This document shows, piece by piece, positions 15,504-20,924 of a stretch of DNA of 64,000 nt. The notes under the pieces are model-generated. The model was not told where the DNA came from. It worked only from the letters and a program-made list of their open reading frames with translations, and did not search any database. How positions within the stretch are numbered: the first letter of the stretch is position 1; each line of letters opens with the position of its first letter. This DNA comes from an uncultured Chlamydiales bacterium (GTDB lineage: Bacteria > Chlamydiota > Chlamydiia > Chlamydiales > JAAKFR01). The stretch is taken from the NCBI GenBank assembly GCA_963748195.1, contig CAVVHU010000011.1, forward strand, positions 28,923 to 92,922, read 5' to 3'. The translations under genes and the position numbers were made by a program.

Positions 15504-17184
15504 ATGGCTTCAATAGGAAATATCTCTCACAATTCAAGAACCTATCGTCCGCTTGACTCCTCTCCTGTTCCACAAGAGAGCGAAACTGAGACTACATGGC
15601 GCGATCGAGGAATCCTTGTCGGCAAAATTGTGCTGGCGATTATTTTCTGTATCCCACTCGCAATTTATTATGGGGTGAGATACCACCGAGAAATTGGTTC
15701 ATGGATATTCCGGCATATTCTCGCTCCGATAGGAAACGCCGTCAGCGCTGCAGCTAAATTTCTCTTCATCACGATCCCAAAAACTCTCTGGACATACGCG
15801 ATTAAACCGGCTGCAAAAGCGATTAAAAGGGCAGTTGTATGGACATGGAATCAAGTCATTGCTCCTGGATTGAAGTTTATCTTCATCACGATCCCAAAAA
15901 CTCTCTGGACATACGCGATTAAACCGGCTGCAAAAGCGATTAAAAGGGCAGTTGTATGGACATGGAATCAAGTCATTGCTCCTGGATTGAGGTTTATCTT
16001 CATCACGATCCCAAAAACTCTCTGGACATACGCGATTAAACCGGCTGCAAAAGCGATTAAAAGGGCAGTTGTATGGACATGGAATCAAGTCATCGCTCCT
16101 GGATTGAGGTTTATCTTCATCACGATCCCAAAAACTCTCTGGACATACGCGATTAAACCGGCTGCAAAAGCGATTAAAAGGGCAGTTGTATGGACATAGA
16201 ATCAAGTCATCTGCTCCTGGATTGAGGTTTATCTTCATCACGATCCCAAAAACTCTCTGGACATACGCGATTAAACCGGCTGCAAAAGCGATTAAAACTG
16301 CAACTGTATGGACATATAATACTGTTCTGAAACCTGGTGCTAAATTCATTTTCATCACGATCCCAAAAACTCTCTGGACATACGCGATCAAACCGGCTGC
16401 AAAAGCGATTAAAACTGCAACTGTATGGACATATAATACTGTTCTGAAACCTGGTGCTAAATTCATTTTCATCACGATCCCAAAAACTCTCTGGACATAC
16501 GCGATCAAACCGGCTGCAAAAGCGATTAAAACTGCAGCTGTATGGACATATAATACTGTTCTGAAACCTGGTGCCAAATTCGTTTTCGTAACCATCCCAA
16601 AAACCATATGGAGATACGCGATTAAGCCTACTGCAAAAACGATTAAAACTGCGGCTGTATGGACATACAATAATGTTCTGAAGCCTTCAGCTAAATTCGT
16701 TTTCGTCACCATCCCAAAAACCATATGGAGATACGCGATTAAGCCTACTGCAAAAGCAATTAAAACTGCGGCTGTATGGACATACAATAAAGTTCTGAAG
16801 CCTTCCGCAATATTCCTTTTCCGAACTCTGCCTCAAGCCTTTTGGCAACACATTGCACTGCCGATTGGAAGAAGGATCCGATCAGTGGGAAGATTCACTT
16901 TCAGACATATTCTGGCTCCAGTAGGAAGAGCTCTTACTACTGCTGCAAGGTTCTTGTTCATCACCTTGCCACGCGAATTTTATCACATCGTGTTGGTGCC
17001 CACAGGAAGAGCCTTAGCTTCAGGAGGGAGGGCGATTCATGATGGTGGACGTGCTATCGCAAACGGAGCTATTGCCGGAGGACGAGCCATACGAGATGGA
17101 GCAGAATGGATAGGATATCAAATTGCCGCGCTCCCTGGAGCTATTCGTGAAGGTTTGGGCTTGAAAGGCCGCGTCAGCACCTGA
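15504..17184 (+). pseudogene. Inc-like tandem-repeat protein, interrupted in this sequence by TAG (16197-16199) and one extra base (about 16212)
   Basis: ORFs 15504-16199 and 16186-17184 carry the same 39-aa repeat; S/T/P-rich N-terminus followed by a hydrophobic segment. Confidence 0.75.
15760..16830 (+). repeat. 117-bp (39-aa) coding tandem repeat, 9 clear copies followed by degenerate copies
   Basis: The Thr-Ile-Pro-Lys (TIPK) codons recur at 15771, 15888, 16005, 16122, 16240, 16357, 16474, 16591 and 16708. Confidence 0.95.
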
Positions 17185-17279
17185 ATTTTCCCAAAGCCCT
17201 GGAATATGTAAAATGAGCTCTTAAAAGAACTCTAGAGTTGAAGATGTGCAAATAGCACTCAATCGCCGCTTGCAAATCA
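17167..17279 (-). pseudogene. Decayed duplicate of the recB 3' end
   Basis: Aligns by hand to 18091-18219 at roughly 80% identity with a 15-bp and a 1-bp deletion; reads FYIFQGFGKIQVLTRP versus recB FYIFLRTGEIQVLTRP. Confidence 0.88.
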
Positions 17280-18069: not shown

Positions 18070-20924
18070 GCAAAAATGTTAAATGTCCGTGGGCGGGTCA
18101 GCACCTGAATCTCCCCAGTGCGTAGGAAGATGTAAAATGAGCCCTTAAATTGTGCTCTGGAGTCGAAGAGGTGCAAATAGCGCTCGACTGCATTCTGATA
18201 AATCGCCGCTTGCAAGTCATACCTATGGTGTTTAACAACCTCTTCAGCCGTACCATCTACATAATTCGTTTTCCAATCTATCACATAATATCCCCCCTCA
18301 TACTCAAAGAATAAATCGATAAACCCTTTGAAATAACCAGGGGGCTCTTCTGATGGAAATAAAAACTCCATCTCTTTGAAAATCTTCTTAGGATCAACAG
18401 CAGAAAGCGGGAAAGTACCGTCAGGTCCTGGCAGCGGCTGATGCAGCGTACGACGCATCATCACCTCAACCTCTTCAGCCCATGGCTCAAGCAGCGTGCC
18501 TTTGAGTTGAGTGGAAACAAAAGGAAGCAGCGACTTCGCCTGAAACGCCTCTTCAAAGGGAAGATCCTCGAACAGTTGGTGAATAAGTGTCCCTGTCTCC
18601 GCTCCCACAGGCAAAATTCCCTCAGGAATATGCATCTTTTCGGGCTCGTAATGCACAAGGGAAGAAAAAGAATGGATCGTAATCGGAGAAAATGTTTTCT
18701 CTAACTTTATAGGAGTAGAGGAAGAAGCGCGTTTAGACCGATAGACAGGCGCTGGATAAATCTTGCAGATCTCATGCGATTTCTTCGTGACATCAACACC
18801 TTCTAAAAATGTGGAAACCGGCGAATCGTTCTCTAAAACAGGAATGTAAAGCCGCCTTTTTGCGCGTGTGCAGGCGACATAAAGCTGACGCATTTTCTCT
18901 GACCGTTCCTCCGCTTCGCTTAAAGGGTCTGAAAGCACAAAACGATTTTCACTCCGCACAAGCCCTTTTCGACGCGTGTGAGGCGCTGCAATGCCGATTG
19001 GAAAGACTACGGAAAATTCAAGTCCTTTACTCACATGAATAGTCATCACCTGAATCGCATCATCTTCCATGATTGCCCGTGCGCGCAACTCTTCTGAATC
19101 GGGATCAAGCTGCATGAGGCCATGATAAAATGAGAGATAGTCCCCTTTATGATGCACAGCTTTTTCTACAAGCTGCAACATATCCTGATAAAGCTGTGAG
19201 TCGCTTAAATTAGACTCCTGTACAACCTTTTGGAAAAAAGGGAGAATGCCTTCTGTTTCCAAAAGATGGTGGTAGCGGTAAAAACGTTCATACTCCTCAG
19301 GGATCGCTTCGATGGAATGACAAAAAAGCGGACCGGCTAATACCCGCGCCATCGCGCTCCTATCTCGGGGATTGTCAGCAGCGCGCAAAAGCTCTAATAA
19401 CGTCGCAAATGCAGGCGAATCGTGAAGTGAGCGGCTTCTTTTTGAAACAGTCGGCAAAGGACAAGCCGCGATAAAACGTTCCGCTTGAAAACGGTCGTTC
19501 ACAAGGACTGCGCACTCGCGTAAAGGAAGTTGTAAACGGGCAATCTCATGTACAATCGTTGAGAAAAGCGCTGCCTCGTCCTCTGCAATAAGAAAATGGA
19601 GACTCCCTTTTCCATCAGAAATAGGAGGAAGTTCTGATGCCGCTTCGACGGGGGGGCAAGGAAGCGTTTCTCCTGTCTTAGGCAAGGAGATAAAATCTTT
19701 GGAAAAAAGCGCGTTTAACTCCTCTACAAGCGAAGGCGTACTCCTGTAGTTTGTTTGAAGGGAGGCATGGGTCTTCTCTCCCATCTGCCGTTTTGCCTCG
19801 AGGTAAGTATAGAGATCGGCATTGCGAAAACGGTAAATCGACTGCTTGGGATCGCCGACCAAATAGAGCGGGCCCTCAAACTGAGCATTTAAAAATAGGG
19901 TAGAAAAAATTTGCCATTGTAAAGGGTCTGTATCTTGAAATTCGTCGATCAAAACGGCCCGAAACTGCCCTCTCACAGCTTTTGCAAACAGAGGATCAGC
20001 CACATGCTTTGCCATCTTCTTCAGCAAATCTTCGAAGAAAACAAGCTCCTCCTCTTCGATCACACGCTCTAAATGCAAGCGTGTTTTCTCCGCTAAGCGC
20101 GCTAAAATAGCCGTCGAATCGGAGAAAAGGGTTAATTTTGGAATCAAATCCCTTTGCAGCTCCTCTAGAAAGCCGGGGTAGTGAAGCGTAGGCGATAGAG
20201 CCCGCTTTAACTTGTTATCCTCCGTGTATTTTAGTATCGGAAGATCAACCGGATCGATTTTTTGCCCTGCTAAAAGCAATGTAAAGCGCTTTAAACCGGA
20301 CTCAACCTCTGGCTTTACATTCTTTTGCCGATCGCACAACTTTCCAAACTGAGGGGCAAGCGCTAAAAGATCTTCTAAAAGTTTATCTGGATCAACTGGT
20401 TGAAGTGCATCGATCGCATTTTGATACTCCCAATCAGGCTCTTCAATGGGGAGGCGCTGACTTGCGATCGATGCAAGCTGATTGACAAGCCCATCGGGAT
20501 CTTTTTTGAGAACTTTTGCAAGCTGTTTGGGAGTAAGAATATGGGAGGTGCGTAAGTAGTCTTTGATGATTTGTTTGAGAAGGGTTATTTGAGCACTCTC
20601 TTCGATCTGATCGAGAGAAAAGCCTGTTTGCAAAGCCTGCTGTTGCAGCATATGGAAGCAAAAGCTATGAATCGTCCAAATTTTTGCCTCGTCAAACTGC
20701 GCGAGCTGATCAGGGGCGAGCTTCGCCCTAATCCTCTCTTTTAGTTCGACTGTTGCCGCCCGCGTAAAAGTCACAACAAGGATTTCATCTAATGAAAGCC
20801 CCTCTTGAAGTAGCCGGAGCACGATGTTTTCGATCGCAAAGGTTTTTCCTGTTCCGGCAGAAGCCTCAAGAAAGTGATTCTTAAAAAGAGGAAGATCGGG
20901 ATCTAAAACGTTAAAACCAGGCAT
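18063..20924 (-). CDS. recB: Exodeoxyribonuclease V beta subunit
   Basis: EASAGTGKT, LIDEFQDTD, VGDPKQSIYRFR, TIHVSKGLEF, YVACTRAK and the C-terminal nuclease motif GFIDL...VIDWKTN. Confidence 0.96.
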   Translation of the reverse strand: MPGFNVLDPDLPLFKNHFLEASAGTGKTFAIENIVLRLLQEGLSLDEILVVTFTRAATVELKERIRAKLAPDQLAQFDEAKIWTIHSFCFHMLQQQALQTGFSLDQIEESAQITLLKQIIKDYLRTSHILTPKQLAKVLKKDPDGLVNQLASIASQRLPIEEPDWEYQNAIDALQPVDPDKLLEDLLALAPQFGKLCDRQKNVKPEVESGLKRFTLLLAGQKIDPVDLPILKYTEDNKLKRALSPTLHYPGFLEELQRDLIPKLTLFSDSTAILARLAEKTRLHLERVIEEEELVFFEDLLKKMAKHVADPLFAKAVRGQFRAVLIDEFQDTDPLQWQIFSTLFLNAQFEGPLYLVGDPKQSIYRFRNADLYTYLEAKRQMGEKTHASLQTNYRSTPSLVEELNALFSKDFISLPKTGETLPCPPVEAASELPPISDGKGSLHFLIAEDEAALFSTIVHEIARLQLPLRECAVLVNDRFQAERFIAACPLPTVSKRSRSLHDSPAFATLLELLRAADNPRDRSAMARVLAGPLFCHSIEAIPEEYERFYRYHHLLETEGILPFFQKVVQESNLSDSQLYQDMLQLVEKAVHHKGDYLSFYHGLMQLDPDSEELRARAIMEDDAIQVMTIHVSKGLEFSVVFPIGIAAPHTRRKGLVRSENRFVLSDPLSEAEERSEKMRQLYVACTRAKRRLYIPVLENDSPVSTFLEGVDVTKKSHEICKIYPAPVYRSKRASSSTPIKLEKTFSPITIHSFSSLVHYEPEKMHIPEGILPVGAETGTLIHQLFEDLPFEEAFQAKSLLPFVSTQLKGTLLEPWAEEVEVMMRRTLHQPLPGPDGTFPLSAVDPKKIFKEMEFLFPSEEPPGYFKGFIDLFFEYEGGYYVIDWKTNYVDGTAEEVVKHHRYDLQAAIYQNAVERYLHLFDSRAQFKGSFYIFLRTGEIQVLTRPRTFNIFAQ

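Follow-up and report, generated by a model that had tools for sequence, protein, structure and literature searches.

Genomic islands integrate at tRNA or tmRNA genes or at the 3' ends of other genes, with direct-repeat attachment (att) sites. Transposon Tn7 inserts after glmS, at attTn7, and is recognized by a 5-bp target duplication, its tns genes and its defined ends. Campbell-type integration, as of suicide plasmids carrying a gene fragment, gives the order fragment-insert-fragment and needs recombination of the RecA type over 100-400 nucleotides (nt) of homology. The isocitrate dehydrogenase gene icd is a target of phage 21 and, likewise, of prophage e14. In Escherichia coli K-12, e14 enters icd and gives it a replacement 3' end, and the displaced end is left as a C-terminal pseudogene, icdC, as outlined in PMC13626634, which cites Hill et al. 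1989. Here, we analyzed a stretch of 64,000 nt (the window, contig C11:28923-92922) from the 2.42-Mb draft genome, in 18 contigs, of an uncultured environmental chlamydia. Between recB and recD of this window lies T', a decayed second copy of the recB tail (T), separated from recB by a single gene with Sel1 repeats. The closest described case is icd/e14/icdC. T' is, with high confidence, a genuine scar of a duplicative insertion that has no present function. The elements that carry this conclusion are:

18063..20924, minus strand: recB, intact, encoding a helicase-nuclease of 953 amino acids (aa) (Pfam UvrD-helicase 4.8e-52, UvrD_C, PDDEXK_1)
18091..18267, minus strand: T, the duplicated part of the recB tail in its functional copy; codes for NYV...DLQAAIYQNAVERYLHLFDSRAQFKGSFYIFLRTGEIQVLTRP with the QxxxY motif of the nuclease (alignments; fits the family consensus, 10 relatives)
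18063..18090, minus strand: last eight codons and stop of recB (RTFNIFAQ-stop), outside the duplicated segment and part of the DNA between the copies (homology ends at 18090/17166)
17382..17918, plus strand: Sel1 cargo gene, first part (Pfam Sel1 1.5e-14; hydropathy)
17917..18069, plus strand: third Sel1 repeat of the cargo gene, out of frame, with the C-terminus (translation; Pfam Sel1 2e-7)
17167..17293, minus strand: T', decayed recB tail pseudogene fragment (MAFFT, blastn, translation, alignment to relatives, shuffles)

Alignment of the two copies by MAFFT and blastn against the whole genome revealed a core in which 17167-17260 of T' matched 18091-18185 of T at 80% identity over 95 nt (E 7e-17 to 1e-16). 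Past a gap of 15 nt, 18 of 19 nt were identical in a global alignment, reaching 17279/18219. This core comprises 113 nt of T' and 129 nt of T in the same orientation, with an identity of ~82-83% and deletions of 15 nt and 1 nt in T'. In agreement, a preliminary description of this DNA had reported 17167-17279 as a same-orientation copy of 18091-18219 with about 80% identity and the same two deletions (15 bp and 1 bp); the similarity on which it relied was significant at E ~1e-16 against the whole genome. T' was longer than first noted, as beyond a deletion of ~37 nt the 12 nt at 17282-17293 match 18256-18267 exactly, a match length attained in 2 of 2000 shuffles. T' was the sole second copy of the recB tail genome-wide (blastn), and no isolated local direct repeat other than the pair T/T' was detected on contig C11 in a self-comparison with a poly-T tract masked. 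The minus-strand translation of T' reads DLQAAI(-5 aa)ECYLHIFNSRV(frameshift)FKSSFYIFQGFGKIQVLTRP and then diverges, the recB counterpart being DLQAAIYQNAVERYLHLFDSRAQFKGSFYIFLRTGEIQVLTRP. The homology between T and T' ends eight codons short of the recB stop.

The polarity of the duplication was determined by aligning T and T' with the RecB C-termini of 10 relatives. T retains the conserved nuclease features LQAxIY, QxxxY, RYL and G.FY.FLR of the family consensus. T' lacks IYQNA, which holds the Y of QxxxY, carries R>C, G>S and LR>QG at conserved positions, and has lost the reading frame. This comparison, which had been proposed in the preliminary description, identified T as the ancestral-like tail and T' as the degraded copy. 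Both copies have in common the stretch G(E/K)IQVLTRP (EIQVLTRP) and its DNA ATTCAGGTGCTGACxCGxCC, which were not present in any of the 10 relatives, and T' was much nearer to T than to any of them. Thus, the duplication took place within the lineage or came from a very close donor. The TRP codons of the two copies differ as originally stated (ACG CGG CCT versus ACC CGC CCA). A Nei-Gojobori comparison of T and T' gave a proportion of synonymous differences (pS) of 0.34 and of nonsynonymous differences (pN) of 0.12, which fits neutral decay of T' together with a T that gained only synonymous changes; the silent differences within IQVLTRP are, for this reason, no evidence of selection on the remnant. 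At the loci of the 10 relatives, neither DNA-level nor protein-level comparison detected a recB tail copy, and homologs of the Sel1 gene or of the 39-aa-repeat gene that follows T' were not found at the recB locus of relatives.

The DNA between the copies holds the Sel1 gene only, and the last codons of the 39-aa-repeat gene (GRVST-stop) lie inside the remnant; translation bore out both of these earlier observations. The cargo open reading frame (ORF) has 178 codons, is convergent with recB, and encodes a bilobed hydrophobic N-terminus followed by two Sel1 repeats and a premature stop. Its hydrophobic segments are at residues ~26-49 and 63-90 (Kyte-Doolittle), a pattern also seen in the paralogs par2 and par3. 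The Sel1 match (PF08238) scored 54.3 bits against a cut-off of 30.7, and the out-of-frame third repeat at 17917-18066 scored 31.7 bits. The tandem Sel1 units measure 106-108 nt, and relative to the neighboring unit a 2-nt deletion near 17916 puts the third one out of frame. The 3' end of the Sel1 gene overlaps the stretch with the last eight recB codons (18063-18090) by 7 nt. The bilobed domain, recognized by hydropathy only, marks the product as a putative Inc-like membrane protein and candidate host-interaction factor. Apart from internal repeats, no second copy of the Sel1 segment 17185-18090 was detected anywhere in the genome. Paralogs of the N-terminal domain are dispersed in the genome (~8 members), the best being 43% identical in that domain. 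One ORF with the bilobed transmembrane (TM) domain of this family, of 396 aa (C4:311622-313839), is located directly upstream of one of the four tyrosine recombinase genes of the genome, probably a housekeeping recombinase of the Xer type; no flanking tail duplication was detected around it.

The recB locus resembles icd/e14/icdC in that a housekeeping protein gene is the target, has obtained a replacement 3' end, and is followed by its displaced fragment in direct orientation beyond the insert. Direct repeats of the target gene's 3' end flank the insert; the one still attached to the gene is intact, and the distal one is a pseudogene fragment. Unlike e14, which is a 15-kb excisable prophage with its own integrase, the recB insert has ~0.8 kb and one non-phage gene, and it is found on a contig without a recombinase. 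Two more differences from icd/e14/icdC are that the recB remnant is much more decayed, no identical core surviving, and that paralogous cargo occurs at different targets. With genomic islands, the locus shares direct repeats of the target 3' end that bracket lineage-specific cargo, and a regenerated target; in place of short att cores, the repeats in this genome are protein-coding tails of 127-430 nt, and four of the five scars described below have no integrase. The directly repeated homologous segment is also what Campbell-type integration produces, and the tail lengths of 127-430 nt match the homology it needs. In contrast to the Campbell-type cases, a natural circular donor is not known here, and the process is deduced from its product only.

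A genome-wide self-comparison yielded a second scar at glmS (C4:472311-474149; TIGR01135, 803 bits). The glmS tail at 473903-474149 (~247 nt) is recopied 1.55 kb downstream at 475699-475899 in decayed form (L035:2104-2350 and 3900-4100). The remnant is 70-79% identical to the tail and has a 39-nt and smaller deletions (blastn E 4e-33, tblastn E 1e-14); it overlaps no gene. Between the glmS tail copies, on the opposite strand, are two TM-Sel1 paralogs of the recB cargo, both with a bilobed N-terminus and one with three Sel1 repeats, and a third cargo paralog follows beyond the remnant. In seven of seven relatives, a Trp/Tyr permease gene follows glmS at a distance of ~5-125 nt; because this junction is tight in all of them, the 3.05-kb block at glmS is a lineage-specific insertion. 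The glmS remnant is sister to the glmS tail of the same genome (78.6% nucleotide identity versus 55-64% to relatives). The flanking paralogs are mutually ~30-38% identical at the amino-acid level, far more diverged than the tail copies there, and were therefore not made by the event that duplicated the tail. As with Tn7, the insert begins immediately past the glmS stop codon. A Tn7-like insertion was nevertheless ruled out by the lack of tns genes and of terminal repeats and by a duplication of ~247 nt instead of 5 bp.

Further scars, in a genome that was also scanned for tail copies (the last 90 aa of each long ORF against the 10 kb downstream), differ in age and cargo. At a distance of 2.2 kb downstream of the NAD kinase gene (C9:30788-31729), its 3' end occurs a second time (C9:28394-28827 and 30789-31463, L037). 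The remnant is a mosaic: identity is 100% over the distal 206 nt and 81% in the proximal part, and ~213 nt are deleted, a pattern suggestive of gene conversion or a crossover in the recent past. These copies bracket an AbiEi/AbiEii toxin-antitoxin pair that is missing from relatives. For an FAD-oxidase/Fe-S gene (850 aa), the last 70 nt are repeated 6.9 kb downstream (C4:548706-548775 and 555682-555751, L041) at 98.6% identity, followed by 21- and 14-nt deletions. The repeats flank a 6.9-kb cluster of seven deoxysugar, methyltransferase and glycosyltransferase genes with no integrase, and no ortholog of the FAD-oxidase gene was detected in eight relatives. Finally, direct repeats of 388 nt with 99.7% identity (C4:104638-105025 and 108200-108587, L036) enclose a 3.2-kb element with a tyrosine recombinase (PF00589) and two ORFs that by eye resemble a RelE/antitoxin pair; the element is probably integrative, small and recent, and it shows that integrative elements proper, with tail repeats, occur in this genome. 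At all these scars, the cargo is present only once in the genome. The genome holds at least four or five tail-duplication scars with repeats of 127-430 nt, and only the L036 element keeps an integrase. In the whole genome, PF00589 gave four matches, none of them on contig C11. Among these scars, which form a class of at least five, the recB remnant is an old one, and we infer that the same process acted at glmS, NAD kinase and other conserved genes.

The explanation that best accounts for the recB locus, to which we assign a probability of roughly 0.58 with its mechanism included, is as follows. About 0.8 kb of DNA with one Inc-like Sel1 gene, convergent with the target, would have entered recB eight codons before its stop and would have duplicated at least 177 nt of it. 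The copy joined to the recB body would have stayed under selection and the distal copy, T', would have decayed neutrally, the inserted DNA having provided recB with a new end of eight codons and a stop, and with a hairpin. The ancestral state would have had the repeat gene directly after recB, with an end of the ...IQVLTRPFKPKPSRIAPGSAAI type. The likeliest vehicle would be a small circular DNA that carried a recB tail copy next to the cargo and that may have come from the same or a very close lineage. A single crossover in the tail, by homologous recombination (Campbell-type) or through a recombinase supplied in trans, would convert this circle into the order tail-cargo-tail. Such circles might form by loop-out between the tail copies of a genome already built in this way. 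The circle and single-crossover route is moderately favored, and a minor share of that weight falls to versions in which an integrase was once present. As side effects, T' would now provide the last six codons of the 39-aa-repeat gene, and recD, which opposite-strand genes spanning 2.6 kb now separate from recB, would need its own promoter. An extension to the whole genome is tentative and rather doubtful: a recombinase-free process may repeatedly add genes, among them the family of Inc-like Sel1 candidate host-interaction factors, at the very ends of conserved housekeeping genes and duplicate 130-430 nt of tail, the recB, glmS, NAD kinase and FAD-oxidase scars representing successive stages of decay. 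Conserved tails might then serve as portable attachment sites, with tail-cargo circles looping out and re-entering naive genomes by a single homologous crossover.

Several observations weigh against this explanation. A tail-bearing circle presupposes an earlier genome with the cargo beside recB, and no such donor is known. The nearest RecB in 5.8 billion proteins was only 71% identical, the window's own RecB protein being present on one contig only, so there is no empty-site or intermediate allele for comparison, and in the same collection the cargo had no close homologs beyond Sel1-repeat similarity. Neither a recombinase nor a transposase was detected at the recB and glmS cassettes by Pfam analysis of the interval ORFs and the PF00589 genome search, and the two cassettes had no shared end motifs or terminal inverted repeats above shuffled controls. 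The longest exact run between T and T' is 15 nt and divergence is even along the repeat, with no identical att-like core surviving; an old att core would have decayed. Both genes of the interval are frameshifted, which could reflect assembly errors in repeats or true pseudogenization.

Among the alternatives, a classical integrase-borne element could have integrated at the recB 3' end with a mimic of the tail and later lost its integrase and most of its cargo. It has a precedent in icd/e14/icdC (as described in PMC13626634) and would leave the right architecture of gene body, regenerated tail, cargo and displaced pseudo-tail, and at one locus of this genome tail repeats do surround a PF00589 integrase. 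We consider it unlikely, since contig C11 has no integrase, in line with the preliminary description, and the genome has just the four PF00589 matches; since the insert is merely ~0.8 kb with tight, gene-sized ends; since the scars at NAD kinase, FAD-oxidase and glmS are integrase-free too; and since paralogous cargo is found at glmS, a target that one site-specific integrase would not serve. An insertion sequence (IS) or other transposon was ruled out by the 127-177-nt duplication, by the lack of terminal inverted repeats above shuffled controls, and by the lack of a transposase domain. Somewhat more doubtful still is a replication-based or illegitimate event, in which a template switch or the repair of a staggered break copied the gene from elsewhere into the recB tail, resumed upstream and duplicated ~177 nt with no circle involved. 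Such an event requires no recombinase, defined ends or att core, in keeping with the outcome of the PF00589 and end-motif searches; the cargo also belongs to a dispersed family of ~8 paralogs. The difficulty is the source, as the best paralog, at 43% identity in the N-terminal domain, is not of an age similar to the T/T' pair with its ~82% DNA identity. Moreover, the cargo of the young NAD kinase and FAD-oxidase scars has no second copy in the genome and, for that reason, came from outside.

Tandem duplication of the recB tail with a downstream gene, the second copy of which was later lost or replaced, is very unlikely even though tandem duplication is the commonest spontaneous rearrangement. 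The repeat-protein families of environmental chlamydiae, too, grow partly in tandem arrays, according to the account in PMC4209131. Only the tail exists in two copies here, T' sits flush against the end of an unrelated gene, and the Sel1 segment is single-copy, by which this explanation is largely refuted. Near-pristine scars with tails of 100% and 98.6% identity would still show a second copy of the cargo, and the paralogs at glmS, at ~30-38% amino-acid identity, contrast with tails of 78.6% nucleotide identity. Of the original proposal of an old insertion or a local duplication, the scar that duplicates the tail and leaves the gene end intact therefore stands, and a simple local duplication is excluded by the single-copy DNA between the repeats. 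Retention of T' for a function, as 3' end or terminator of the repeat gene or as a source of antisense RNA to the recB mRNA tail, is similarly improbable. T' does contain the last six codons and stop of that gene and a weak terminator-like palindrome (17215-17232), and if transcribed together with the gene it would yield RNA antisense to recB, with perfect matches of 13-15 nt. Its substitutions and three deletions look neutral, however, there was no Rfam match, the repeat gene is itself frameshifted, and the glmS remnant overlaps no gene. Least credible is an assembly or metagenomic chimera in which the recB of a second strain was mis-joined. It could be suspected in an 18-contig draft from an uncultured organism in which both interval genes are frameshifted in repeats. 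T' is broken (frameshift, three deletions, residues of the catalytic motif lost) and is not part of a working allele, and the same architecture recurs independently on other contigs. On either side of the junction, the genes (recC-recB ... recD and four more) are ordered as in relatives, which also argues against a chimeric contig.

The remaining features of the locus are:

20911..23706, minus strand: recC, intact, 931 aa (Pfam Exonuc_V_gamma 5.6e-40, RecC_C 2.3e-13)
14081..15430, minus strand: recD, intact, 449 aa (Pfam AAA_30 1.8e-31, UvrD_C_2; orthologs in 30/30 relatives)
15504..17184, plus strand: 39-aa-repeat membrane protein gene (TRF; translations)
17294..17381, no strand: AT-rich region of 88 nt upstream of the Sel1 gene, from T' to the start codon, GC ~0.33 (sequence)
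18044..18059, minus strand: predicted terminator-like hairpin, 4 nt past the recB stop and within the inserted DNA (consensus scan only)

The genes recC, recB and recD share one orientation, and each encodes its characteristic Pfam domains; orthologs and gene order were checked in relatives. The spacing of 2.6 kb between recB and recD contains the two plus-strand genes. The 39-aa-repeat gene has nine tandem units of 117 nt, identified by Tandem Repeats Finder (TRF), and is unique in the genome to the recB locus. Near 16190 (16150-16200), where its two repeat subtypes meet, a stop and a +1 shift interrupt it. It ends with GRVST-stop at 17182-17184, the final six codons and stop being inside T'. 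An Rfam search at a permissive threshold over 13000-19500 gave zero matches, and an RNA gene at T' was ruled out on this basis. Outside the window, ~14 kb upstream of its start, C11:12899-15240 is a ~2.3-kb tract of nearly pure T with some A, probably an assembly artifact.

The positions of recB and recD were compared in 30 relatives. The gap between the two genes is tight (0-60 nt) in ~7 genomes of the family. Six genomes from four genera have a conserved same-strand gene pair there, which encodes a membrane protein of 190-266 aa and a protein of 510-590 aa composed of 40-aa repeats (Y), neither with a Pfam match; one of the six has the first gene only, and another has a truncated second gene. 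The intervals with this pair are:

L013:5975-8378
L015:7122-8152
L021:3315-5635
L023:801-3348
L025:40-2444
L024:491-1066

Neither member of the pair was detected anywhere in the genome that contains the window. Its constant position and orientation indicate an old operon component that was lost repeatedly, not repeated landing of new cargo, and the cassette is probably ancestral. Descent of the 39-aa-repeat gene from Y by inversion and divergence was ruled out by hhalign probabilities of 0.1-0.2%. In one relative of another genus (G010), the recB-recD interval (L022:7434-8326) consists of two ORFs with several C2H2 zinc-finger-like motifs, such as CGQCGKSFKKASNLRAHAKSAH, a eukaryote-like motif in a chlamydia. 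The preliminary description had proposed comparing these intervals, and had suggested that the junction is a landing site for effector-like genes on the opposite strand. The junction is indeed variable in the family, but the loci of the 10 relatives hold no further tail copies, the cassette of the relatives is conserved and on the same strand, and the suggestion of opposite-strand cargo has the support of this one genome only. A special role for the recB-recD junction is contradicted by the same architecture at glmS, NAD kinase and other genes, which shows that the process of tail duplication is not specific to it.

The repeat-protein families of Parachlamydiaceae follow birth-and-death evolution (Domman et al. 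2014, PMC4209131). Like those families, as presented there, the cargo belongs to lineage-specific putative effectors of the TPR/Sel1 type that are dispersed as well as in tandem, with intergenic pseudogene fragments. Duplicated tails of housekeeping genes as insertion scars are not described in the portions of PMC4209131 that we read. Overall, the recB remnant is a real but fairly ordinary trace of gene gain, whose general kind is known and whose integrase-free, recurrent form is unusual. It is a molecular fossil of the splitting of the recBCD operon by a putative host-interaction gene, in which the nuclease tail of RecB was kept only through tail regeneration. Pseudo-copies of gene tails mark, and roughly date, lineage-specific insertions where close relatives are unsequenced. 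If the pattern is general in environmental chlamydiae, it would provide a route by which effector-like repeat families spread in genomes with few mobile elements.

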